A stretch of DNA of 64,000 nucleotides, from positions 22,859 through 86,858 of the forward strand of contig JAYTOE010000067.1 of the NCBI GenBank assembly GCA_043747935.1. The letters run 5' to 3'. The notes below the pieces were generated by a model. The model saw only the letters and a program-made list of their open reading frames with translations. It was not told the DNA's origin and did not search any database. Positions 12,097-46,009 of this stretch are shown one piece after another (positions within the stretch are counted from its first letter, which is position 1; the number at the start of each line of letters is the position of its first letter). Source of the stretch: Akkermansiaceae bacterium. Lineage in GTDB: Bacteria; Verrucomicrobiota; Verrucomicrobiia; Verrucomicrobiales; Akkermansiaceae. Position numbers and translations under genes: made by a program.

Positions 12097-13010
12097 TCAA
12101 ACCTTTGGCAAATCAGGAGCCTCTATTATTGGGTCACTTGGTGATGCCAGTTTCCACAGAGAACCGTTGATGCTGACGACTCCTATGCCGAATGAGTTGG
12201 TGGGTATGATTCGGGCGGATACAGATTCTCCTTGATTAGGAACCGGCAGACCAAGCGCTTCTGCTATCATGAGGTGCGCCCGGTACTGCCCTAAAATGAT
12301 ATGCCTTCCGGTTTGAGAGTGGTTCTCGCCCCACCGTTTGCTCGCACTCGTTTCATATAGTCATCTTGCTGCGCGACTGTCGCAACCACTGCCCGACCAA
12401 TCCTCATGCCTTGGGTCAATCGGAATAGGTTGTTTATGCGCTTAACTCCGGATCCCGAAATCATGATCTTATCCACAACGTCCTGCGGCAGTTGAAGGAG
12501 CACATTGGGAGGTAATTCGGCATCCCTCCAAATCCAAAGAATGGCGTCTCGGCCAGTTACGTTAAGAGTCGCCTTGGAATCCCTATTCCCGCCAGAGTTA
12601 AGACGTTCGGGCGTAATTCTGACCAGACCCAAGCTCCATTTCGGATGGGAACTGTCTTCGGCCCACACCACCATGCAGACATGCCCCAGTGCTTCCGGTG
12701 GAATCATCCAGCCTCCAAGACGCTGAGAATATTTGCAGTCCACCTCAACCCCTGCGATTTCGTAATCCAACGTCTTTCCGTCATCGAAATCGAAACGCCG
12801 CTGGAGGTTGATCTCCACAAGAGTGCCGCAATGGGTTTTCTCTGTTTTGTAGAGTTGATCCCATTTGTATCGACCGGTTCTCTGTTCATCGTAAAGTTGA
12901 TCGATCGTATCACGAATGACCCGCGCGAACATCCGCCCGGTCGGATCCAACTGCCGTAGCTGAATTGCAACCTTGGCCACCTCCTCGTCTACGGACAATT
13001 CAAGAGCCAT
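12097..13010 (-). pseudogene. NaeI-family type II restriction endonuclease, frameshifted near 12301
   Basis: RDTIDQLYD, KTEKTHCGTLVEINL, VDCKYS, QQDDYMKRVR; the C-terminus IILGQYRAH...LGLPVP...EAPDLPKV continues in another frame after a 1-nt loss. Confidence 0.9.
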
Positions 13011-13260
13011 CTCTTTTGCCTTTCGTAGCAGGTATTTCGCCGACAGCTTCCGAAATCAGGCTGGCCAAGCTCATGTTCAGTGCGACGGCGATTTTGGCAG
13101 CGGCATCCAGGGTGGGGTTGCGCATACCCCGCTCAATCATGCCGATGTAGGTCGGGTGGAGTTTGGATAGCTCAGCCAAGCGTTCCTGTGAAAGTCCGGA
13201 ATTCAGACGTAATCGCTTAACCGCGATTCCAAATTGCTTCGAAACACTGATGGAAACCAC
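13000..13260 (-). CDS. XRE-family HTH controller (C) protein of the R-M system
   Basis: LSQERLAELSKLHPTYIGMIERGMRNPTL; overlaps the endonuclease start; C-box-like site upstream. Confidence 0.88.
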   Translation of the reverse strand: MVSISVSKQFGIAVKRLRLNSGLSQERLAELSKLHPTYIGMIERGMRNPTLDAAAKIAVALNMSLASLISEAVGEIPATKGKRDGS

Positions 13261-13282
13261 TAGTAATTCCTGACAGCGAACC

Positions 13283-13308
13283 CATCAAACGTCCACAGAC
13301 TATAGTCT
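13283..13308 (-). promoter_or_regulatory. C-box-like operator (GACTATAGTC-TGTG-GACGTTTGAT)
   Basis: Perfect palindrome AGACTATAGTCT at 13297-13308, then GTG and a degenerate second half, upstream of the C gene. Confidence 0.7.
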
Positions 13309-13333
13309 TTCCTGTGCGCTAACAGGATGGAGT

Positions 13334-14338
13334 TCAGGAAACGCGTATGCTCTGTCTGCCAGCCTGAGATCCGCGGATGGCCTCTCTTATACGTAGAGCA
13401 ACGGCCTCTGCAACTGGCGGCGGAAAGGCATTGCCGATTTGGCGGTAGGAAGCAGTTTTTCCCCCGGCAAATTGCCAGTCATCGGGGAAACCTTGGATTC
13501 TGGCGGTCATACGGAGAGTGAGACGCGGAATTTCCCTGAAACCTTTTGGTGGAGCTTCATTGGCTAGCGAGATCCCGTTCACGCCGAGAGCAGCCCAGGC
13601 TTTACGGGCGCGGGTTGGCCCGAGGTCGGCTCCGCCATGCTTTTTGGAACCACCCACGAGAGTTGGAGCGATTTCGCTGGCATTTGCCGCCCATTCGAAA
13701 GCTCCTTCCCAGCCATTCTCTGCCATGAGATCAACGAGGGTTTCCCCAACCGTTTTGGTTAGCCTGCTGTCGGTGAGTGGTATCGGAGGGTAAAAATTCG
13801 ATGAAAGGTCTTCACGTATGGCCACCACCACAACTCGCGGGCGAAGCTGTGTTACCCCAAAGTCCGAGGCATTCATCAGGTGCCAACTTGCGTCGTATCC
13901 AAGAACTTTTAGCTGCTTCTTCAGGCTCATGCGGTAGTCGGTAAACACCGCGTCCAGAAAGCCACGGACATTCTCCAGCATGACAGCCTTCGGTTGACAT
14001 TCTTCCACCAAGCGGAGCGCTTCCGGGAAGAGGTCACGTTCATCAGCCTCGCCTAGCTGCTTTCCTGCCTTCGAGAACGGTGGACACGGCACTCCTCCCG
14101 CCAACAAATCTACTCCTTTGTATTCCTTGGCGGAAAATTGCCTCACATCCCCTTCGATCACATTCCACGTCGGTCGGTTCTGCCTTAAGGTTGCACACGC
14201 ATGCCGGTCATATTCGACGTGCGCAAGAGCTTCGAAACCCGCTCTTTCAAGCCCTATCGCTTGCCCACCGGCTCCCGAACATATTTCTACACAGGTAAGT
14301 GGACTATTGCGTATTTTTGCGGCGGTAGAGAGCTTTAT
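13334..14338 (-). CDS. C5 cytosine DNA methyltransferase (NaeI/NgoMIV-like); start uncertain, ATA at 14338 proposed
   Basis: Motif I EICSGAGG, IV GGVPCPPFS, VI ENVRG, VIII QLRPR, IX/X RIQGFPD...GNAFPP; no in-frame ATG/GTG/TTG upstream of motif I. Confidence 0.85.
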   Translation of the reverse strand: MKLSTAAKIRNSPLTCVEICSGAGGQAIGLERAGFEALAHVEYDRHACATLRQNRPTWNVIEGDVRQFSAKEYKGVDLLAGGVPCPPFSKAGKQLGEADERDLFPEALRLVEECQPKAVMLENVRGFLDAVFTDYRMSLKKQLKVLGYDASWHLMNASDFGVTQLRPRVVVVAIREDLSSNFYPPIPLTDSRLTKTVGETLVDLMAENGWEGAFEWAANASEIAPTLVGGSKKHGGADLGPTRARKAWAALGVNGISLANEAPPKGFREIPRLTLRMTARIQGFPDDWQFAGGKTASYRQIGNAFPPPVAEAVALRIREAIRGSQAGRQSIRVS

Positions 14339-25171: not shown

Positions 25172-26014
25172 ATGAAAATGAAACGCCTCATCTTGTCCGG
25201 TTTGCTTGTGGGTTCTGCGGCTCTTGCGGTCTCGTCCTGCGCCTACGATCCTTATTACTCCTCGTCCTCCTATTCCGGTGGATACGGAAGCGGATATGGG
25301 AGTTCGAGCTTCTCCACTTCCGTTTTCGTAAGCACTGGCAATCCTCGCTGGGGCTATGATCCCAACGCGGGCTGTTATTACGACTACACGCGCAGGTCGT
25401 ATTATGATCCGTATCTATGCGGCTACTACCCCGTCGGTTATCGTCCTCGCTACGTTTATGGTGCGCCCCATCCCCACGGCTGGTCGCGTGGCAGCGGCTA
25501 CTGCCCGCCGCCGACAAGGATCAGCAGCCACACGATCGTAAATTGTGACAACCGCGCCGAGAGCTACCGTTCGTTGGGCAGGGAGTGGTCCGACAATGTC
25601 AGAGTCAGTGCGCCCAATGGCCATGGGTCTCATAGTTACGGTGACAGCAACCAGAATGGTTGGAGCGGAGAGCGGATTCGTCCTAGTGAGGTAAACCCGC
25701 AATCACCGAGCATCCCGTATTTTAACAATGATGGAAATGGTCGGGGTTCATCCGGTAGGGGCGATGCAGGTGGCGGGGGCTTTGATCGCGGCAATAGGCC
25801 GCAGCCAACCATGCCGAATCCGAGAGCCTCGCGCAATGACTCGCCGCCGCCCGCGCCAACGTTCGAAGCACCTCCACGGATCGAGTCGCCAGCCGCGCCT
25901 CCACGGATCGAGATGCCTGCCGCACCTCCACGGATCGAGATGCCTGCCCCGCGCCGGGAACCTCAGGCACCGGGCGAGAATTCAGAAGGTATCAGATCGC
26001 TGGGCGAAGGCTGA
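25172..26014 (+). CDS. Hypothetical Tyr/Gly/Pro-rich lipoprotein
   Basis: Lipobox VSSC; Tyr-rich N-terminal region; low-complexity Pro-rich tail. Confidence 0.75.
   Translation: MKMKRLILSGLLVGSAALAVSSCAYDPYYSSSSYSGGYGSGYGSSSFSTSVFVSTGNPRWGYDPNAGCYYDYTRRSYYDPYLCGYYPVGYRPRYVYGAPHPHGWSRGSGYCPPPTRISSHTIVNCDNRAESYRSLGREWSDNVRVSAPNGHGSHSYGDSNQNGWSGERIRPSEVNPQSPSIPYFNNDGNGRGSSGRGDAGGGGFDRGNRPQPTMPNPRASRNDSPPPAPTFEAPPRIESPAAPPRIEMPAAPPRIEMPAPRREPQAPGENSEGIRSLGEG
25868..25948 (+). repeat. 3 x 27-bp in-frame tandem repeat (APPRIE[S/M]PA)
   Basis: GCACCTCCACGGATCGAGATGCCTGCC-type units, read directly. Confidence 0.9.
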
Positions 26015-27139: not shown

Positions 27140-27367
27140 CTAAGGCTGCTTCATCAGGAAAAAAATGCCCGTGAGGACGATGGCGAGAAGTGAGAAGCCG
27201 ATGGCGCACCATTTCATGAGACGGTAGCGATTCCTGCGCCGCAGGAGTTCAATATCGCGCCTTGATTTGGAATCGATGGCGGTGGGGGTCTGGGTTGCCC
27301 TATGGTGATGGCGTGAGTAGGTCTTTTTCGGACTTCCCCCTGGTTGGGTTGGGGATGTGGATTGCAT
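27140..27367 (-). CDS. Small hypothetical protein with C-terminal TM helix
   Basis: Basic N-terminal region and a hydrophobic C-terminal helix (WCAIGFSLLAIVLTGIFFL); stop abuts the ctaA region. Confidence 0.5.
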   Translation of the reverse strand: MQSTSPTQPGGSPKKTYSRHHHRATQTPTAIDSKSRRDIELLRRRNRYRLMKWCAIGFSLLAIVLTGIFFLMKQP

Positions 27368-27489
27368 TTTTTCTGTTTCCCTATCGCTGCCGGAAATCAT
27401 GGATCGCGGCAGAAGACTTTTCCATACAAAAATCACGCACCGGTTGCGAGGAAATTTATGGGATCAATCGGGCACCGCGTCCGTACACG

Positions 27490-27532
27490 AAAAAGCAGGC
27501 CTGGGCTTGTTGAAAGCCTCAGACCTGCTTTT
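27490..27532 (-). terminator. Intrinsic terminator after the 54-aa lipoprotein gene (possibly bidirectional)
   Basis: AAAAAGCAGGCCTGGGCT...AGCCTCAGACCTGCTTTT hairpin with A/T tracts on both sides. Confidence 0.75.
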
Positions 27533-27553: not shown

Positions 27554-27718
27554 TTACTTGGAGTATTCCACCTGCACGGGGGCGGGGGTAGTCGGGATCT
27601 CCTTGAAATTGGGCATGGGACGGAGAGGCGGTGCGGCCGAATCGCTGGTGCAGCAGCCGCAGGATGAGGATAGGACAGCAATGACGCTGACGGAGATGGC
27701 AAGGAAGAAACGAATCAT
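27554..27718 (-). CDS. 54-aa Cys-rich lipoprotein (not in the ORF track)
   Basis: MIRFFLAISVSVIAVLSSS-CGCCTSDSAAPPLRPMPNFKEIPTTPAPVQVEYSK; signal peptide, lipobox-like SSSC, A/C-rich leader, own terminator. Confidence 0.8.
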   Translation of the reverse strand: MIRFFLAISVSVIAVLSSSCGCCTSDSAAPPLRPMPNFKEIPTTPAPVQVEYSK

Positions 27719-27778
27719 GGTGGGCTTGGTTTAGCTTAGGTGTTTTATTTGGAAAGAGTTTTTTGATCACGGGGATCA

Positions 27779-27820
27779 GAAAAAAGCCCCGCCCGATTCC
27801 GGAGAAGCGGGCGGGGCGGG
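27779..27820 (-). terminator. Intrinsic terminator after the 35-aa lipoprotein gene
   Basis: Minus strand GCCCCGCCCG...CGGGCGGGGC followed by a T tract. Confidence 0.85.
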
Positions 27821-27828
27821 AGCCGGAC

Positions 27829-27936
27829 TTACTTAGCTGGAGCTTGGTAAGCAGGAGCTGCAGGAGCGCTCGGGCAGCACGAAGCTGCGAAGAAGGCTGC
27901 GACAGTGGCAACGATGGCAAGTTTGATCATGTTCAT
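27829..27936 (-). CDS. 35-aa lipoprotein (not in the ORF track)
   Basis: MNMIKLAIVATVAAFFAAS-CCPSAPAAPAYQAPAK; clear lipobox, GCT/GCA/TTC/TAC-rich codons, A/C-rich leader, own promoter and terminator. Confidence 0.85.
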   Translation of the reverse strand: MNMIKLAIVATVAAFFAASCCPSAPAAPAYQAPAK

Positions 27937-27999
27937 ATCAGTTGTGTTGTTTGTTGGTTGCTGAAATCACCTGCCCGTCTTGGGCTGATGATGTGGGCG

Positions 28000-28027
28000 A
28001 GACTAGCGACAGCAGATGGGTCTGCAA
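28000..28027 (-). promoter_or_regulatory. Putative sigma70-type promoter of the 35-aa lipoprotein gene
   Basis: TTGCAG-N16-TAGTCT about 60 nt upstream of the ATG. Confidence 0.5.
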
Positions 28028-28059
28028 GGTAAAAGGTCGTTTTGCCTTGCCGAACAGCA

Positions 28060-32185: not shown

Positions 32186-32860
32186 TCATCCGTTCCTCCA
32201 TGCCTCGATCATCGCTTGCAGATCCGAGGGATGGGTCGTTTCCCTCATCACACACATACCATCCAAGGACGTTTCGCCGATCACCCGTCCGCCGCGCAGG
32301 CCGCCTCCGGCCAGTAAGCAGGTGAACGCCGCCGGATGATGTTCGCGTCCGCCGAAGGCGTTGAGTTTCGCGCTGCGCCCGAATTCTGTGGTCACTACCA
32401 TGAGTGTTTCCGAAAGGGTTCCGCGCGCTGCCAGATCATCCAGCAAACCGCTGAGCGTGCGGTCGAGCATCGCACATGGACGTGCGATCCTTGCGTGGAT
32501 GTCCGTATGTGTGTCCCAGCCGTCGATGATGATTTCCTCCGCAAATTGAAATGTGTCCCGCGCCGCGCCGTGGCTCCGTTGTTCGTGGCTCATCGAACGG
32601 ATCAGCGTGATCCTGTCCATCCGCCTTGCGAGCAGCGGCAGGTGCTCGCTGATATGAACGCCGTCCACATTCGTCGGAATCGTGCGGATGCCGGGCTTGG
32701 GATCGAAGGTGTCGATGTGACTCATCCCACCGGCCATAAAAAGGTGGATCACACGTTTCGTTTTCGCTGCCTTGTGCGTCTCGGCGGGCAACAAGCCAGC
32801 GCCGAGCGCCGAAGCCGCGGCAGTCGAGAGGAAACGGCGTCGTGTGATTTCTCCTGACAT
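32186..32860 (-). CDS. Shortened DUF1501-like protein with Tat signal (possibly a pseudogene)
   Basis: TRRRFL, HLFMAGGMSHIDTFDPKP, GWDTH, EFGRS, GGLRGGRVIG; 224 aa with the middle region missing. Confidence 0.75.
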   Translation of the reverse strand: MSGEITRRRFLSTAAASALGAGLLPAETHKAAKTKRVIHLFMAGGMSHIDTFDPKPGIRTIPTNVDGVHISEHLPLLARRMDRITLIRSMSHEQRSHGAARDTFQFAEEIIIDGWDTHTDIHARIARPCAMLDRTLSGLLDDLAARGTLSETLMVVTTEFGRSAKLNAFGGREHHPAAFTCLLAGGGLRGGRVIGETSLDGMCVMRETTHPSDLQAMIEAWRNG

Positions 32861-34516: not shown

Positions 34517-35155
34517 ATGTTCTTAAAATCATTCATCCTACTACTCGCCGGTGCCACCGCTCTTCTGCTTTCAAGCTGCGCCATCAAGCCCGAACCCACT
34601 CTCTCCAAGTCGGACGAGAAATATGTGAACCCTTACGAGCCCGGCAGCTACGATCATTTCAAGGCGGAAAAGGATTACCCGAAGACCCACAATGTCTGGA
34701 AAAATATCCAACTGCTTCCGGAGACGAATTCCTCCAATGCATGGGTGAAGATCAGCCTGAAAGATCAGCGCGGCTTTCTCATGAACGGCGAAGAGGTGAT
34801 CATGGACTACCCGATCTGTTCCGGGATCAAGAGCCGACCCACTCCTCCGGGCGACTACAAGGTGCTGGAAAAAATCGTGGATAAGAGCTCGAACACCTAC
34901 GGAAAAATCTACGACGCAGAAGGCAGCATGATCAACGGTGACGCCGATGCCACCTCGGACACCATTCCCGAGGGCGGCAAGTTTGTCGGCGCACCGATGC
35001 GATACTGGATGCGCCTCACATGGGATGGGGTCGGCCATCACATCGGCCCCATCCGCCGTTATCCCGCCTCCCATGCCTGCATCCGCGGCCCAAGCGGCAC
35101 GATGCCTACCGTCTATTCGAAGATGGCCGTCGGCTCCCGCGTGCTCGTGGAGTGA
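34517..35155 (+). CDS. L,D-transpeptidase family (YkuD) lipoprotein
   Basis: Lipobox LSSC; PTPPG, MRYWMRL, catalytic HH...SHACIR. Confidence 0.9.
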   Translation: MFLKSFILLLAGATALLLSSCAIKPEPTLSKSDEKYVNPYEPGSYDHFKAEKDYPKTHNVWKNIQLLPETNSSNAWVKISLKDQRGFLMNGEEVIMDYPICSGIKSRPTPPGDYKVLEKIVDKSSNTYGKIYDAEGSMINGDADATSDTIPEGGKFVGAPMRYWMRLTWDGVGHHIGPIRRYPASHACIRGPSGTMPTVYSKMAVGSRVLVE

Positions 35156-35173
35156 GGCGATTTCTTACCAAGG

Positions 35174-35204
35174 AAAAAGCCCGGCGGAGGATCTCCGGCG
35201 GGCT
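35174..35204 (-). terminator. Intrinsic terminator between convergent genes
   Basis: Minus strand AGCCCGCCGGAGATCCTCCGCCGGGCTTTTT. Confidence 0.75.
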
Positions 35205-35237
35205 CTCGTGTGATTGGAAACGGAGTTCAGGTGAAAA

Positions 35238-35654
35238 TCACTCGTCCTCTTCCTCCATGAACTTGTCGTGGCCTGTCTTCTTCATGTCGCGCATGGCCTC
35301 GACGATCTCCTTCACCTTCGCGGTGTCATTGCTCAGGAACGCGAGTTCCAGGTCGGCGAGGGTGGAGATGAGGGAGCCCATCATCTTGCGGTATTCGGCG
35401 GAGGCCTTCGCCTTTTCGGGGCCGTCGGGCATGTCCTTGACCAATGCGGGCAGTTCCACGATGCCCTTCACAATCGCGTCCTGCGCCTCACGGGCAAGGG
35501 CGGCACCCTTGGCGGGATCGGTCTCGCGGCGCATCGCCTTGTAGGCGTCGTACATGGCTTCCATCTGTTTGCCGAGCGGGGTGTCATCGCCATCAGCCAA
35601 GCACGGTTGGACGAACATCAGTGTCGCGGCGAAGCCGCAAAGGATCAATTTCAT
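35238..35654 (-). CDS. Cytochrome b562-family protein
   Basis: Signal peptide; helical mature domain with an N-terminal Met (KQMEAM) and C-terminal GHDKF His as likely heme ligands. Confidence 0.75.
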   Translation of the reverse strand: MKLILCGFAATLMFVQPCLADGDDTPLGKQMEAMYDAYKAMRRETDPAKGAALAREAQDAIVKGIVELPALVKDMPDGPEKAKASAEYRKMMGSLISTLADLELAFLSNDTAKVKEIVEAMRDMKKTGHDKFMEEEDE

Positions 35655-35757
35655 GGTGGCCATATTACGCATCCATCACCCCGTTTCTTCCAAGGCAAAA
35701 AATCCGATTCCGCTTTTGCGGAATAAACCTGCAAGTATGCGCAGCTCAGTCTAAACG

Positions 35758-38031
35758 TTGCGTGTGGATTCCGAGGAACCCGAGACCAAACCCCGCCGCC
35801 GACTCCGGTTCCTTGCTCGCTTGTTCGTCATCGGGGTTCTCGCAGCGGCCCTTGTCTGGTTCGTCCTGCCTTTCGCGTTCCAACTCCCGCCGGGCTTGGC
35901 CGTACGCCCGGTCGCCTCGCCGGTTCTGCTCGACCGCCACGGCGAGCCGATCCGTCACCTTACCTCCGAGGACTTCACTCGCGCCGCTCCGATCAGGCTT
36001 TCCGAAATTCCGCCCCGCTTGCTCGATTGCACCCTCGCCGCCGAGGACAAGCGCTTCTTCTCCCACCACGGCATCGACATTTTCGCTACCTTCCGCTCCG
36101 CCACCGATTTTCTCCGGCACCGCCGCGTGGTTTCCGGCGCATCGACCATCACCCAGCAGCTCGCGAAAATCTCCGCCCCGCCCGCGCCGCGCAAACTCGC
36201 CTCGAAATTCCGCGAAGCGATGATCGCCCGTCGCCTTGAAATGACGTGGGAGAAAGACCGCATTCTGGAGGCATATTTCGCGAGGCTCGATTACGGGAAT
36301 CTCCGCATCAGTCCCACGGAGGCGGCGCGGTTCTATTTCCAGAAACCCCTGGCCGATCTCTCGCTCGGCGAGGCAGCCCTGCTCGCCGGGCTACCGCAGG
36401 CACCCTCGCGGCTCAATCCCATCCGCCACCCGGAGCGCGCGAAGAATCGCCGGCTTATGGTTCTCGATCGTCTTGCTCAGACCGGGAAATACCCGCAAGC
36501 AGCCATCGCCCTCGCCCGCGAGGAACCGCTGCGCCTCCGGCCGCTCACGGAGACGCAGAGCGCCCCCTGGCTCAACCGCTCGCCGGGCTTCACCATCCAC
36601 GCCCGCTCCACCCTCGACCTTTCCCTTCAGGAAGACATCGAGCGCATCGTCCGCGAGGAGACTGCGAAGCTGAAGGAATCGAACCTCCGCCACGCCGCCG
36701 TGGTTGTGATTGATAACGCCAGCGGCGACATCCTCGCCATGGTATCCTCGGCCGATTGGGACGATCCGCGCGGCGGCCAGCTCCACGGCGCGATGACCCC
36801 GCGCTCGCCCGGCTCCACGTTGAAGCCGTTCACCTACCTCCTCTCCTTCCGCCACCTCGGTCATCTGCCGTGCACCGTCATCGCGGACATCCCCACGCCG
36901 CTCCGCACCGCGCAGGGCTTGCAGCTTCCGGAAAACTACGACCGCCGTTACCGCGGGCCGGTCACCATCCGTCACGCCCTCGCCTGCTCGCTCAACGTCC
37001 CCGCCCTCCGCGAGCTCGACGCCCTCGGCGGCCCGCAAAAACTCCAGTCGTTTCTCCAAATCCTCGGTATCTCCACCCTCGGCGGCAGTGCCACCGAATA
37101 CGGCCTCGGCCTCACCCTCGGCAACGCCCCCGTCCGCCTGCTGGAGCTCACCAACGCCTACGCAGCCATCGCCCGGCTCGGCATGTTCCTTCCCACCCGG
37201 CTCTTCATGGATCACGAAATCCCCGCCGGGAAAAAGCTCATCGACGCCACCCACTGCTGGCTCATCGCCGACATCCTTTCCGACAAAGCCGCCCGAGCGC
37301 CCTCCTTTTCCACCGGCGGTGCGCTCGATCTGCCTTTCACCTGCGCCGTGAAAACCGGCACCTCCTCCGACTTTCGGGACAACTGGTGCGTCGGTTTTAC
37401 CCCGGAGTTCACGGTCGGCGTCTGGGCAGGGAACTTCGAGAACCAGCCGATGAAAAACATTTCCGGAGTCTCCGGCGCGGGCCCTATTTTCCACCGCGCC
37501 CTCGTCCGCGCCCACCGCGATACGCCGCCCACCTGGTTCGCGCGACCGGATGGTTGTGAATGGGTGGAAGCCGACACCCGCACCGGTAAGCGACTCACCC
37601 CCGGGGATCATCCGACGTTCTCCGTAAAGGAATGGCTCCCGCCCGGCACGGGAATCCCCGGCGCGTCCCCAACCGATTACGACGAATCAGGCCGCGCCAA
37701 GCTCCCGCCCGTTTACGCCGACTGGTATGCCTCGGCGCAAAACCTGCGCCGCCACGAACTTTTCCTCGATCCCACCGCGCAAAACCTCACGCCCCTTGAG
37801 ATCCTCCGCCCCCGCCACAACACCACCATCCTCCTCGACCCCGAACTCCCCGGCAGCAACTCCTCGCTGAAACTCCTCACCAACCTCCCCGAGTTCACCA
37901 CCTGGGCCTGCGGAACCCTCGTGATCAAGGGCGATACCGCCAAGCTCATCGCCGGCACCCACACCCTCACCGCCACGGACACCCGCGATGGCAAGGAACA
38001 CCACATCACCATCACCGTGCAGCCCTTATGA
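35758..38031 (+). CDS. pbpC: Penicillin-binding protein 1C
   Basis: EDKRFFSHHGID, GASTITQQLAK, SPGSTLKPF (SxxK), SLN, KTGTS. Confidence 0.9.
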   Translation: MRVDSEEPETKPRRRLRFLARLFVIGVLAAALVWFVLPFAFQLPPGLAVRPVASPVLLDRHGEPIRHLTSEDFTRAAPIRLSEIPPRLLDCTLAAEDKRFFSHHGIDIFATFRSATDFLRHRRVVSGASTITQQLAKISAPPAPRKLASKFREAMIARRLEMTWEKDRILEAYFARLDYGNLRISPTEAARFYFQKPLADLSLGEAALLAGLPQAPSRLNPIRHPERAKNRRLMVLDRLAQTGKYPQAAIALAREEPLRLRPLTETQSAPWLNRSPGFTIHARSTLDLSLQEDIERIVREETAKLKESNLRHAAVVVIDNASGDILAMVSSADWDDPRGGQLHGAMTPRSPGSTLKPFTYLLSFRHLGHLPCTVIADIPTPLRTAQGLQLPENYDRRYRGPVTIRHALACSLNVPALRELDALGGPQKLQSFLQILGISTLGGSATEYGLGLTLGNAPVRLLELTNAYAAIARLGMFLPTRLFMDHEIPAGKKLIDATHCWLIADILSDKAARAPSFSTGGALDLPFTCAVKTGTSSDFRDNWCVGFTPEFTVGVWAGNFENQPMKNISGVSGAGPIFHRALVRAHRDTPPTWFARPDGCEWVEADTRTGKRLTPGDHPTFSVKEWLPPGTGIPGASPTDYDESGRAKLPPVYADWYASAQNLRRHELFLDPTAQNLTPLEILRPRHNTTILLDPELPGSNSSLKLLTNLPEFTTWACGTLVIKGDTAKLIAGTHTLTATDTRDGKEHHITITVQPL

Positions 38032-42645: not shown

Positions 42646-44556
42646 ATGCCCCGTCTTTCCTTTTCCATACTGCCGCTCCTAGCGCTATCCGCTCCTCTTC
42701 ACGCGGCGGTGGATTTCGCCCACGAGGTGGTGCCGATTCTTGAGAAAAACTGCGTGGAGTGCCATAGCGGGCCGAAGGCCAAGGGCGGGCTTTCCATGGA
42801 AACCCGGGCGCTGCTGCTCGAGGCGGATGTGCTCGAGCTTGGCAAGCCGCATGATTCTCTCCTGATCGAGGTGCTCACCGCCGAGGATCCGGACGACAAG
42901 ATGCCGCCGCCGGGGAAGAAAAAGGCTCCGCTCAAGCCCGCCGAGATTGAAGTCCTGAATCGCTGGATCGCCGAGGGCGTGCCATGGACGGAAGGCTTCA
43001 CCTTTGCCAAGGAACGCTACGAGCCGCCGCTGAAACCAAGGGTCGTGAAACTGCCGTCCGGTGCCTCCGGCACGAACCCGATTGATCTTATCGTCGCCGC
43101 GCATCTTAAAAAAGAGGCCATCGAAGCGCCGCAACCCATCGATGACCGCACGTTCCTCCGCAAGGTCACGCTGGATCTGACCGGCATGCCGCCCACCCCG
43201 GAGATTCTTTCCCAACTGCCATCCGAGGGGAAACTCGACCGCGCCGCAGTGGTGGATCGCCTGTTGGCCGATAATCAGGCCTACTCGGAGCATTGGATGA
43301 CTTTCTGGAACGACCTCTTGCGCAACGAATATGTCGGCACCGGTTACATCGAGGGCGGCCGGCAGCAGGTGACGGGTTGGCTCTACCGCTCGCTGGTGGA
43401 AAACAAGCCCTTCGATGCGTTCATCCGAGAGCTGGTCGCACCGACCCCGCAATCGACCGGTTTCGTCAAGGGCATCCAGTGGCGCGGCCAGGTCAACGCA
43501 AGCCAGACGACGGAGATCCAGTTTTCCCAGAACGTCTCCCAGGTTTTTCTCGGGATCAATATGAAGTGCGCCTCCTGCCACGACAGCTTCGTGGATCGGT
43601 GGACTCTGCGCGAGGCATACGGCCTTGCCGCGATCTACTCGGAGAAACCGCTGGAGCTCACGCGTTGCGACAAGCCGACGGGTGAGATGGCCGTGGCATC
43701 GTGGATCTACCCGGAGCTGGGAAATGTCGATCCCGCCAAGCCGCGCGATGAGCGCCTCAAGCAGTTGGCAGCGCTCATCACCCACCCCGAAAACGGCCGC
43801 ACCCAGCGCACCATCGTGAACCGCCTCTGGAACCAGATGATGGGACGCGGCATCGTCCATCCCGTCGACGCGATGAACACGCCGCCCTGGAACGAAGATC
43901 TGCTCGACCTGCTCGCGAACCATCTCGTCGCCTCGAAGTATGATCTGAAAGCGGTGATGCGGCTGATCGCCACCTCGCGCACCTACCAGTCCCGCACAGA
44001 GATTCGAGGCGAGGAGGATGGCCCCTACGTGTTCCATGGCCCGGTGCGGAAACGCATGACCGCCGAGCAGTTCCTCGACTCGATCCGCGGCGTGACCGGT
44101 GTCTGGCCGGAGCCGGACAAGGACGCGTTTGCGAAAGGCCTCACCGGCGGACAGCTCGCGGTGGTGATGGATGTGCACGGCCTGGAGAAATGGGACGGCA
44201 GGCCGGTGCGCGCTGTGTTCGCGAAACGCGATGAGCTGCAGGCCGCGCTGGGTCGGCCGAACCGCGAGCAGATCGTTTCATCCCGCCCCGATATCCTCAC
44301 CACCCTGGAGGCGATCAATCTTGCCAACGGCCCGGAACTCGCCGGGCTTCTCAAAACCGGAGCTGCAAAGCTCCAAGGCGGTTTGCCGCCCCGCGATCTG
44401 ATCGAGAACACCTATGAGGCCGCGCTCTCGCGCAAGCCCTCGGATTCCGAAGTCCGCATAGCCACCGAAATCCTCGGCGCAACACCCAACGCGGAGGCGA
44501 CGGAGGATTTCCTCTGGTCCGTCTTCATGCTCCCCGAATTCATCTACATCAATTGA
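42646..44556 (+). CDS. Planctomycete cytochrome c plus DUF1549/DUF1553 (PSD1) protein
   Basis: CVECHSG, NPIDLIV, FWNDLL, CASCHD, VNRLWNQMMGRG, RKRMTAEQ. Confidence 0.9.
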   Translation: MPRLSFSILPLLALSAPLHAAVDFAHEVVPILEKNCVECHSGPKAKGGLSMETRALLLEADVLELGKPHDSLLIEVLTAEDPDDKMPPPGKKKAPLKPAEIEVLNRWIAEGVPWTEGFTFAKERYEPPLKPRVVKLPSGASGTNPIDLIVAAHLKKEAIEAPQPIDDRTFLRKVTLDLTGMPPTPEILSQLPSEGKLDRAAVVDRLLADNQAYSEHWMTFWNDLLRNEYVGTGYIEGGRQQVTGWLYRSLVENKPFDAFIRELVAPTPQSTGFVKGIQWRGQVNASQTTEIQFSQNVSQVFLGINMKCASCHDSFVDRWTLREAYGLAAIYSEKPLELTRCDKPTGEMAVASWIYPELGNVDPAKPRDERLKQLAALITHPENGRTQRTIVNRLWNQMMGRGIVHPVDAMNTPPWNEDLLDLLANHLVASKYDLKAVMRLIATSRTYQSRTEIRGEEDGPYVFHGPVRKRMTAEQFLDSIRGVTGVWPEPDKDAFAKGLTGGQLAVVMDVHGLEKWDGRPVRAVFAKRDELQAALGRPNREQIVSSRPDILTTLEAINLANGPELAGLLKTGAAKLQGGLPPRDLIENTYEAALSRKPSDSEVRIATEILGATPNAEATEDFLWSVFMLPEFIYIN

Positions 44557-44560
44557 AGCC

Positions 44561-46009
44561 ATGACACAGGAAAACTGGTACGACGAATCACATCCGGAAC
44601 TCACCCGCCGCCGTTTCATCGGCGCGCTGGGTGCCACCGCGGCAGCAACCTTCCTCGGCGGAGCGCCCCGCGCCTCGGCGAGTTCCTTGAAACATCCCAC
44701 CGCCACTGCGGATTCCTGCATCCTGATCTGGATGGCGGGAGGCATGGCCGCGCCGGAGACCTTCGATCCGAAACGCTACAAGCCCTACGAGGTCGGCACG
44801 CCGGTCGAGCAGATCATCAGCACCTTTCCCGCCATCGATACGGCGGTGGACAACATCAAGATCTGCCAGGGTCTTGAGAACATCGCCGGTGTGATGGATC
44901 GCGCCACGCTGATCCGCTCCCATTTCCAGCAGGATCTCGGTAGCATCCTGCACTCCCGCCACCAATACCATTGGCACACCGGATACGTCCCGCCGCAGAC
45001 CGTCGCCGCCCCGCACATCGGCGCATGGATGGCGAAGGTGCTCGGCGGGCGCAACGATGTCATGCCGCCCTTCATCAACATCGGCCAGCGCCTCGAAGGC
45101 CACGGCGAGAGCGAGGAATTGAAAGCCTTCACCACCGGCGGCTTTTTCGGCAGCGAGTTCGGCCCGATGAACCTGCCTTTCCCCGAGCTAGCCTCGCAGG
45201 CCGTGAAGCCGCCCGGCGGCATGTCGCCCGATCGTTTCGCGAAACGCTACAAGGCTTTGGAAAGCCTCCTCAAAAACTCACCGAAATCCGAGCAACTCAG
45301 CGATTACCACCAGGAATCCATGCTCCGCTCCATCGATAACGCACACCGCTTGCTCGGTTCCAAGGAGCGCGATGCCTTTGATCTCACCAAGGAGAAAAAG
45401 GAAACCTACGACGAATACAACACCGGCCAGTTCGGCCAAGGCTGCCTGCTCGCCCGGCGGCTTGTGGAGAACGGCGCGCGCTTCGTCGAAGTCACCACGG
45501 AATACATCCCGTTCTACCACTGGGACACCCACGAGAACGGCCACACCACCGCCGAGCGGATGAAGAAGGAGATCGACCGACCCATCGCCCGCCTGATCAA
45601 GGATCTGGAGGAGCGCGGTTTGCTCGACCGGACGCTCGTCGTCATCGCCAGCGAGTTCAGCCGCGACATGATGATCGAGGGCGTGCCCGGCTCCACCGCG
45701 AAGGATCAGTCACGCGCGGCGACCGATGTGATCAAGGAGATGAAACACTACGGATTGCACCGCCATTTCACCGGAGGCTCCTCCGTGGTCATGTTCGGCG
45801 GCGGTATGAAAAAGGGTCACCTCCACGGGGCGACCGCCGACGAGCGCCCCTGCTTGGTCGTCGACAAGCCCGTCGGCATCGAGGATCTCCACGCCACCAT
45901 CTTCACCGCTATGGGCATCAGCCCGAAAACGGAGTTCGACATCGAGGGCAGGCCTTTCTACGCCACGAAAGACGGGATTGGAAAAGCGGTGCGCGAGGTC
46001 TTCGTGTAG
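44561..46009 (+). CDS. DUF1501 domain protein with Tat signal
   Basis: TRRRFIG, WMAGGMAAPETFDPK, CLLARRLVE, WDTHEN, SEFSR. Confidence 0.92.
   Translation: MTQENWYDESHPELTRRRFIGALGATAAATFLGGAPRASASSLKHPTATADSCILIWMAGGMAAPETFDPKRYKPYEVGTPVEQIISTFPAIDTAVDNIKICQGLENIAGVMDRATLIRSHFQQDLGSILHSRHQYHWHTGYVPPQTVAAPHIGAWMAKVLGGRNDVMPPFINIGQRLEGHGESEELKAFTTGGFFGSEFGPMNLPFPELASQAVKPPGGMSPDRFAKRYKALESLLKNSPKSEQLSDYHQESMLRSIDNAHRLLGSKERDAFDLTKEKKETYDEYNTGQFGQGCLLARRLVENGARFVEVTTEYIPFYHWDTHENGHTTAERMKKEIDRPIARLIKDLEERGLLDRTLVVIASEFSRDMMIEGVPGSTAKDQSRAATDVIKEMKHYGLHRHFTGGSSVVMFGGGMKKGHLHGATADERPCLVVDKPVGIEDLHATIFTAMGISPKTEFDIEGRPFYATKDGIGKAVREVFV

Follow-up and report, generated by a model that had tools for sequence, protein, structure and literature searches.

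Two very short lipoprotein genes conserved in freshwater Verrucomicrobia are candidates for a minimal Braun-like tether between outer membrane and cell wall

The DNA analyzed here (64,000 nucleotides [nt], referred to as the window) comes from an Akkermansiaceae bacterium (assembly GCA_043747935.1, contig JAYTOE010000067.1, positions 22,859 to 86,858 of the forward strand) and carries on its minus strand two very short open reading frames (ORFs), ORF1 and ORF2, predicted to encode prolipoproteins of 35 and 54 amino acids. ORF1 is a genuine protein-coding gene with a transcription unit of its own; RNA contigs show that it is transcribed in nature, and the ORF1-ORF2 pair is conserved in freshwater Verrucomicrobia. 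Judged by their sequences, the two products are good but unproven candidates for a minimal Braun-like tether that links the outer membrane to the wall. ORF1 is also a clear case of the conserved, transcribed genes that annotation pipelines usually miss. A preliminary description of the window had pointed out that ORF1 was missing from its ORF track, and the databases agree: an exact-sequence look-up returned no recorded gene with the ORF1 product, and in contigs L004-L015 ORF1 is intact yet uncalled, ORF2 alone having been called.

ORF1 (27936..27829, minus strand; translation MNMIKLAIVATVAAFFAASCCPSAPAAPAYQAPAK) begins with ATG AAC ATG ATC AAA and ends with GCT AAG TAA, the stop codon TAA occupying positions 27831-27829. 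Its predicted signal peptide, MNMIKLAIVATVAAFFAAS (27936-27880), has a single basic residue (K5), a hydrophobic core of 13 residues, and then the lipobox FAAS↓C, which we take to satisfy the PROSITE lipobox rule (PS51257). The lipobox Cys is the first residue of the predicted mature peptide, CCPSAPAAPAYQAPAK, of 16 amino acids (27879-27832), and the tetrapeptide AASC is unvaried in 18 distinct ORF1 sequences. The preliminary description had proposed exactly this, a 35-residue lipoprotein with a clean FAAS↓C lipobox and a 16-residue mature peptide, and the sequence bears it out; the interval that it had given for the gene, 27829-28027, is bounded by the stop codon at one end and, at the other, by the first base of the -35 hexamer described below. 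The mature peptide contains two Cys residues in 1.6 kDa and consists of ∼30% Pro, with family-wide values for the mature parts of ∼27% Ala and 25% Pro. With family alignments as input, AlphaFold2 predicted the signal helix alone, and both mature parts, of ORF1 and of ORF2, were predicted to be coil; a Pro/Ala-rich sequence with predicted coil structure is what would be expected of a spacer. Neither ORF1 nor ORF2 had a match in Pfam or NCBIfam (none at an E value of ≤1), and an Rfam search of the ORF1 region gave nothing above noise. In the intergenic space of the window, ORF1 and ORF2 are the only small ORFs with a lipoprotein signal. Of 12 Ala codons in ORF1, 6 are GCT and none is GCG, compared to 11% and 30%, respectively, in the long genes of the window; of the codon bias that had been claimed as a mark of high expression, what stands is a departure from the genome norm.

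Comparison across loci argues that ORF1 encodes a protein. Homologues were searched for with the 35-amino-acid query extended by 9 upstream in-frame codons, followed by a profile search. Copies were retrieved from metagenome proteins (P0001-P0003 and P0013-P0033), contigs (L001-L015), species-representative genomes (L016-L024), a cultured isolate (L025), and Joint Genome Institute (JGI) metagenomes (L030-L046); the scan of species-representative genomes used signal-peptide patterns and yielded 9 loci (L016-L024), a design that narrows its taxonomic reach. The sense frame of ORF1 is the only one of the six that is open in all 13 diverged loci. Variable sites are distributed over codon positions 1, 2, and 3 as 8/6/15 and 4/2/7 in two codon-alignable blocks, and the length of the spacer varies by whole codons, giving mature peptides of 16 to 20 amino acids. 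Single-nucleotide polymorphisms in the ORF1 RNA contigs fall in the third codon position in five of six cases, and the sixth, Ala29Thr, is known in relatives too. Invariant columns among the 18 distinct sequences are M1, K5, AASCC, and the final K, with P22 nearly so; the conservation of Cys at mature positions +1 and +2, suggested in the preliminary description as something to look for, was therefore found without exception in this set. In the cultured isolate Luteolibacter sp. SL250 (complete genome CP113054.1; L025:9143-10355), ORF1 (OVA24_00395; ...AASCCPSAAPEPSRPTYQAPAK) and ORF2 (the next gene; ...SASCCCTSEPKAPPLRPLPQFQEIETTTVSEVHAEK) stand in tandem. Members of the ORF1 and ORF2 families for which a source name was available are all annotated as “hypothetical protein” of Luteolibacter or “Akkermansiaceae bacterium” genomes, and a literature search found no paper that describes either family.

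Two further observations concern these loci. An antisense ORF of 89 amino acids (27763-28032, plus strand) was rejected as a gene, as it covers the terminator and the promoter of ORF1 and its reading frame is interrupted at other loci. Four freshwater metagenome-assembled genomes that carry the pair (L016, L020, L021, and L022) bear the titles “Prosthecobacter debontii” or “Akkermansia muciniphila”; by sequence, however, they group with Luteolibacter/Akkermansiaceae metagenome-assembled genomes, and the titles look unreliable.

ORF1 lies in a complete transcription unit of its own. The promoter (28000..28034, minus strand) consists of TTTTACC, a -35 element TTGCAG (28027-28022), a spacing of 16 nt, and a -10 element TAGTCT (28005-28000). 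A scan of the window with a generic sigma-70 consensus flagged no promoter at ORF1, but the layout TTTTnCC-TTG[CT][AC][GC]-N16-TA[GA][TC][CA]T recurs with unchanged spacing from the ATG in all 13 diverged loci, so that the promoter of the preliminary description holds despite the blank scan. From the position of the promoter, transcription is predicted to start at about 27993. The predicted mRNA would then open with a 5′-terminal stem-loop (27966..27992, minus strand, from folding), and the entire 57-nt leader folds with -14.3 kcal/mol (z score, -3.8). A hairpin 1 to 4 nt from the predicted start is present in 13 of 13 loci, with differing sequences and a mean z score of -3.5 relative to shuffled sequences. 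It is followed by an A/C-rich, G-poor leader without a Shine-Dalgarno site (27937..27965, minus strand). The A/C richness noted earlier is plain from the last 26 nt before the ATG (14 A, 8 C, 2 G, and 2 T), and the G content of this final segment is 0 to 2 at each of the 13 loci. The 5′ hairpin of ompA is a precedent for mRNA stability, and by analogy with ompA and lpp, a 5′-terminal hairpin joined to an unstructured leader would suit a stable and efficiently translated mRNA. Downstream, an intrinsic terminator (27780..27817, minus strand) comprises a stem (27817-27786) and a T-run (27785-27780). Its folding energy of -28.9 kcal/mol (z score, -3.6) supports the earlier claim of a strong terminator of its own, which sits just beyond the interval first assigned to the gene. 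A GC-rich hairpin lies 3′ of ORF1 in 13 of 13 loci, its stem showing compensatory changes, and the T-run is present in most of them.

Transcription was examined in public RNA data, all of which were assembled contigs rather than reads, which makes depth an unreliable measure. Metatranscriptomes from freshwater sediment, freshwater, estuary, and plant (X21, X22, X23, and X25, respectively) contained contigs that cover ORF1 (27822/27832-27971). At ∼95% identity or more, the ORF1 transcript was the only full-length contig on 20 kb of the window in these four unrelated runs, the other matches being 35- to 110-nt pieces of contigs that run into unrelated sequence. The 461-nt ORF1-ORF2 stretch was matched in at least 24 RNA runs from many studies and the equally long neighboring ctaA stretch in 1. 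Higher DNA conservation is not the cause of these matches, because the helicase gene and the tetratricopeptide repeat (TPR) gene are equally conserved (identities relative to L012 of 87.5% for the ORF1 unit, 88% for the helicase, and 87.5% for the TPR gene). Two runs, X17 and X20, hold this very organism at >99% identity, and their contigs cover 27591-27764 (ORF2). The ORF1 transcript is probably abundant. For the high expression asserted in the preliminary description, the support is indirect: ORF1 is transcribed, with RNA contigs in several metatranscriptomes, but in X17 and X20 its contig depth does not exceed that of its neighbors.

ORF2 (MIRFFLAISVSVIAVLSSS↓CGCCTSDSAAPPLRPMPNFKEIPTTPAPVQVEYSK; 27718..27554, minus strand) follows 110 nt downstream of ORF1 and has the outline SSS↓CGCCTSD...VEYSK. 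It has an intrinsic terminator of its own (27491..27532, minus strand; -27.6 kcal/mol; z score, -6.8), followed by UUUUU. The tandem arrangement is found at nearly every locus, ORF1 occurring alone in a few lineages (L028 and L041/L042). A profile search of ORF2 against 1.84 billion representative proteins gave 66 matches at an E value of <1e-3, of which 65 are lipoproteins of ∼50 to 60 amino acids, some with an overcalled N terminus; the remaining match, the 672-amino-acid repetitive protein P0089, was taken as spurious. The family shares the design S-C-(0 to 4 residues)-C-C-T-[SG]-[DE]..AP.LRPLP.F.EI, which leads into a Pro/Ala stretch of variable sequence and a final K, and the CC pair lies 0 to 4 residues past the lipid-bearing Cys in nearly all of the 66 representatives. 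Profile-profile comparison of ORF1 with ORF2 gave a probability of 54%, over the signal peptide and the CC region only. Between the ORF1 terminator and ORF2, the spacer at 27741-27770 (minus strand) reads GATCAAAAA.TC.TTTCCAAATAAAA and is kept in close relatives; from its sequence, it could serve ORF2 as a weak promoter. However, an RNA contig of X17 (27593-27764) runs across this spacer, which suggests that some transcription passes the ORF1 terminator and continues into ORF2.

The feature that most directly recalls a Braun-type lipoprotein is the last residue. It is Lys in 24 of 24 database proteins of the ORF1 family and in 71 of 73 of the ORF2 family, the two ORF2 members without it being overlong ORFs that resemble frameshifts or read-through, and positions -2 to -4 vary widely. 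In ORF1, the sequences that precede the Lys include YQAPA, YVEPA, YTKPA, YVAPS, PVSA, PVTSS, KVAASA, and VVAPA. Tyr is common but not invariant: it occupies position -3 in 35 of 73 ORF2 members and is missing from ORF1 members of the PVSAK type. The scan for ORF1 at the DNA level took the lipobox, rather than the tail, as its anchor. The preliminary description had staked its tether idea on conservation of this residue beforehand, and the Lys is conserved, with a single exceptional lineage (L043/L044). As far as the alignments tell, the terminal Lys appears to be under a constraint similar to that on the lipid-attachment Cys, and it does not seem to be absolutely required in ORF1.

We infer a mechanism in which lipidation, outer-membrane location, linkage to peptidoglycan, the disulfides, and the responsible enzyme are all predicted. 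The products would be exported by Sec, the invariant Cys of AAS↓C would be lipidated, and the signal peptide would be removed. What is left would be a Pro/Ala-rich extended spacer of 16 residues (ORF1) or 28 to 54 residues (ORF2) with a free C-terminal Lys. A periplasmic L,D-transpeptidase would then join the epsilon-amino group of this Lys to the meso-diaminopimelate (mDAP) of a stem peptide, as happens with Lys58 of Escherichia coli Lpp, and the lipopeptide would pin the outer membrane to the wall. The additional invariant Cys residues (Cys+2 of ORF1 and the Cys-Cys pair of ORF2) would form intermolecular disulfides that bundle several lipid anchors and so stand in for the absent trimerizing coiled coil. 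That ORF1 and ORF2 are such triacylated lipopeptide spacers of the outer membrane, linked to mDAP through their C-terminal Lys by an L,D-transpeptidase and bundled by disulfides through the extra Cys, is a serious possibility to which we give slightly less than even credence.

A candidate enzyme for the link between Lys and peptidoglycan is encoded in the same window. The gene at 34517..35155 (plus strand) encodes an L,D-transpeptidase lipoprotein of the YkuD family (Pfam PF03734; E = 3e-13; 146 of 146 profile positions), with the lipobox LLSS↓C and the His/Cys active-site motif HHIG...SHACIRG, as the preliminary description had reported for position 34517. Searches against PDB gave distant matches to L,D-transpeptidases of the Enterococcus type only. 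The gene is followed after ∼600 bp by one for a class A penicillin-binding protein (PBP) with transglycosylase and transpeptidase domains (PBP1a; 757 amino acids; 35758-38031, plus strand), and a short unassigned ORF lies between them (35268-35726). These two genes form a small cluster for peptidoglycan synthesis (34517-38031, plus strand).

Several points weigh against the tether. The YkuD gene is 6.6 kb away from ORF1 and syntenic in close relatives only (L012), and its substrate specificity (protein attachment as in ErfK/YbiS/YcfS or 3-3 cross-linking) is unreadable from sequence. The ORF1 of L043/L044 (1590-1706 in both, from two samples), the sole Lys-less lineage found, ends in ...TYVPPVVAG and a stop codon, the adjacent ORF2 retaining ...VEYSK. 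A C-terminal Lys is present in >20% of E. coli periplasmic proteins and lipoproteins (PMC12274547), so that only its persistence throughout the families counts as evidence. The two products differ about 2-fold in length, which is awkward for a single membrane-to-wall distance, and the internal motif AP.LRPLP.F.EI conserved in ORF2 would be needless in a pure spacer. Finally, the contig depth over ORF1 and ORF2 in X17 and X20 is ∼1.5 to 4, no higher than the 2 to 12 of neighboring genes, although contig depth gauges expression poorly and these runs may contain DNA.

The alternative that survives best is a disulfide-linked envelope lipopeptide resembling the chlamydial OmcA, without a covalent link to the wall and with a Lys that makes ionic contacts only; the Cys+2 of ORF1 and the Cys-Cys of ORF2 would cross-link the peptides among themselves or with outer-membrane proteins. 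The Cys at +2 of ORF1 is as invariant as the lipobox, nearly all 66 ORF2 representatives retain the CC pair, and the sister phylum Chlamydiae provides a precedent in OmcA (PMC2811131). With one or two free Cys residues per peptide compared to many in OmcA, and with no Pfam match to OmcA, the resemblance is limited, and a near-invariant C-terminal Lys amid varying neighbors is left unexplained. We consider this alternative unlikely, and it overlaps with the tether rather than excluding it.

The peptides might instead be adaptors that act through short linear motifs, binding noncovalently to a class A PBP (as Lpo proteins do), to an L,D-transpeptidase or a hydrolase, or to the Lpt or Bam machinery (as LptM does), by way of the ORF1 tail TYQAPAK and the ORF2 motif AP.LRPLP.F.EI. 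The strong conservation of the ORF2 motif speaks for such a role, as do the positions directly after a class A PBP gene (L018 and probably L024) and after murD-ftsW (L026), the position beside skp-lpxD (L025), and the label “LpoB” that JGI gives to one member, although this label looks unreliable and corresponds to no family match. No match to LpoB, LptM, or any other NCBIfam or Pfam family was obtained, and the neighbors vary by lineage, so no single partner is implied. The ORF1 tail, moreover, is swapped outright in some members (PVSAK, VTSSK, and VAASAK) with the Lys retained, and a regulator would not be expected as the sole gene of 20 kb to be seen in metatranscriptomes. On balance, adaptors of this kind seem distinctly improbable.

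The invariant CC, CGCC, or CCC motifs and the presence of ctaA downstream at several loci would also be compatible with a thiol function, namely, a lipid-anchored peptide with vicinal Cys residues that binds a soft metal (Cu or Hg) or buffers the redox state of the periplasm. The ctaA linkage is lost in other lineages, metal-handling genes are not adjacent, and neither the terminal Lys nor the Pro/Ala spacer would be accounted for, which makes this function very improbable. That ORF1 is a chance ORF within a small RNA or an intergenic region, as its very short length, its omission by gene callers, and its want of a family match might suggest, is hardly credible given a frame kept in at least 13 loci where the five others gain stops, third-position bias, in-frame indels, an invariant lipobox, and no Rfam match.

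The surroundings of the pair were compared among loci. In the window, ctaA (heme A synthase) lies downstream of ORF1-ORF2 and a DEAD-box helicase gene upstream. Elsewhere, the pair stands directly after PBP1a (L018 and probably L024, where an ORF of like size and position is found), precedes an Omp85 gene (L017), follows murD-LysM-ftsW-DUF3313 with an M23 peptidase nearby (L026), is divergent from skp (OmpH)-lpxD with a TolC-like OEP gene nearby (L025, strain SL250), or is next to MoxR/DUF58 at some loci. Conserved gene neighborhood was rejected as a decisive functional clue, since the neighbors vary (DEAD helicase, MoxR/DUF58, PBP1a, murD-ftsW, and skp-lpxD); the recurrence of envelope genes among them gives weak support to an envelope role.

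The window is otherwise an ordinary verrucomicrobial chromosome, with genes for SMC, TPR proteins, pilin-like proteins, an M29 peptidase, and UvrC, and it also carries the PSCyt/PSD1/DUF1501 genes typical of the Planctomycetes-Verrucomicrobia-Chlamydiae (PVC) group. Some of its other genes deserve mention. A NaeI-family restriction endonuclease gene (12291-14161, minus strand; Pfam E = 1e-103) adjoins that of a C-5 cytosine DNA methylase, and the two look like a type II restriction-modification pair. An ORF of 224 amino acids (32186-32860, minus strand) has its best-scoring match to positions 248-357 of the 390-position DUF1501 profile and might be a shortened version of the full DUF1501 gene (44561-46009, next to PSCyt/PSD1 at 42646-44556). 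Two ORFs had no Pfam match: one at 25172-26014 (plus strand), for a predicted lipoprotein of 280 amino acids with the lipobox AVSS↓C and a Tyr/Ser/Gly-rich start, and one of 98 amino acids at 27140-27436 (minus strand), which has a C-terminal hydrophobic segment and abuts the start of ctaA.

Covalent tethering of the outer membrane by lipoproteins is regarded as a specialty of a few gammaproteobacterial orders, and the question arises how the other diderm phyla secure theirs. If the peptides are wall bound, the principle of Lpp (a lipid anchor, a spacer, and a terminal Lys) evolved independently in the PVC group, and it works without a coiled coil and with a spacer of only ∼14 residues; this would matter for the question of what determines periplasmic width. 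Luteolibacter sp. SL250, a carrier that is in culture and has a complete genome, would then make the system easy to test. In its boldest form, the proposal is that Luteolibacter/Akkermansiaceae have the shortest known Braun-type tethers, two disulfide-bridged, nonhelical lipopeptides (of 16 to 20 and ∼35 residues) that an L,D-transpeptidase links to mDAP through their C-terminal Lys, so that the Lpp principle would have been invented independently outside Proteobacteria; we advance it tentatively, as a conjecture more doubtful than not. Such tethers would have stayed hidden until now because gene callers skip ORF1.

Compared to Lpp, both products are likewise small lipoproteins that have a lipobox Cys at the N terminus and conserve a Lys at the C terminus, ORF1 is likewise monocistronic with its own promoter and a strong terminator, and the endings EYSK/EYTK of ORF2 resemble the YRK and S/RYTK endings of Lpp orthologues. 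The differences are larger: the mature ORF1 peptide has 16 residues of predicted coil and an extra invariant Cys, whereas Lpp is a trimeric coiled coil of 58 residues built of heptad repeats, and neither ORF1 nor ORF2 matches the Pfam LPP family. Lack of homology together with the coil prediction means that ORF1 is not a member of the Lpp family, whatever its function. Any kinship with Lpp or OmcA that might be read into the preliminary description finds no backing in Pfam or NCBIfam, and the mature peptide is predicted to be coil, not coiled coil. Lpp is restricted to Aeromonadales, Alteromonadales, Enterobacterales, and Vibrionales, and other Gracilicutes are thought to depend on Pal and OmpA (bioRxiv 10.1101/2021.05.31.446380); ORF1 and ORF2 occur in Verrucomicrobia, in contrast to the four gammaproteobacterial orders of Lpp.

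The “Lpp box” described for OutB of Dickeya dadantii shows that a single C-terminal Lys can be necessary and sufficient for attachment by L,D-transpeptidases, reporters included; substitutions within the motif are tolerated, and in Vibrio and Photobacterium, the Lpp orthologues end in S/RYTK (PMC12274547). Such tolerance implies that the attachment chemistry is permissive and that a lone terminal Lys proves little. OutB is an inner-membrane protein of a gammaproteobacterial secretion system with a basic tail (VRTTKK), unlike ORF1, whose tail is Pro/Ala rich and whose whole mature protein is little more than a tail.

OmcA and ORF1 are both small lipoproteins from the PVC superphylum, and in OmcA, too, a Cys directly follows the lipidated Cys. 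OmcA has ∼70 mature residues with many Cys residues and is not known to have a conserved terminal Lys. ORF1 is not a cysteine-rich protein of ∼9 kDa, and there was no Pfam match to OmcA, which in Chlamydiae, the sister phylum, belongs to a disulfide-linked complex as a cysteine-rich lipoprotein of the outer membrane (PMC2811131). Families of the LpoB and LptM types had no NCBIfam or Pfam match to ORF1 or ORF2, and “LpoB,” the automatic JGI name of the ORF1 homologue P0014, was rejected as an identification for a product with no family match and only 16 mature residues, where LpoB would have a globular domain that binds PBP1b. The H.8 antigen “Lip” of Neisseria is, like ORF1, a small lipoprotein with a mature part that is nearly all Ala/Pro-rich sequence of low complexity; it differs in its AAEAP pentapeptide repeats, its acidic character, its surface exposure, and its lack of a Cys-Cys pair and of a terminal-Lys signature.

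The closest precedent comes from the same phylum. WP_009060351 of Methylacidiphilum fumariolicum SolV, a protein of 139 amino acids and the most highly expressed lipoprotein of that organism, has a Verrucomicrobia-specific C-terminal domain of 53 amino acids with conserved Tyr and Lys (Liu et al. 2023, PMC10260701). Its immunodetection in the peptidoglycan fraction led the authors to propose that it acts as an Lpp-like tether (PMC10260701). By its published description, WP_009060351 shares with ORF1 and ORF2 the phylum, a conserved lipobox Cys, and a terminal Lys, and its C-terminal Tyr has counterparts near the C terminus of ORF1 (..YQAPAK) and ORF2 (..EYSK). Its mature N terminus, CSNK, is without the Cys-Cys of ORF1 and ORF2, and none of the 66 ORF2 profile matches is of its size. 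The preliminary description lacked both this precedent and the tandem gene ORF2, and at the level of the phylum, the Methylacidiphilum study had partly anticipated the idea of an Lpp-like function (PMC10260701). ORF1 and ORF2 add to it a new, unannotated pair of families that may act like Lpp without being related to it.

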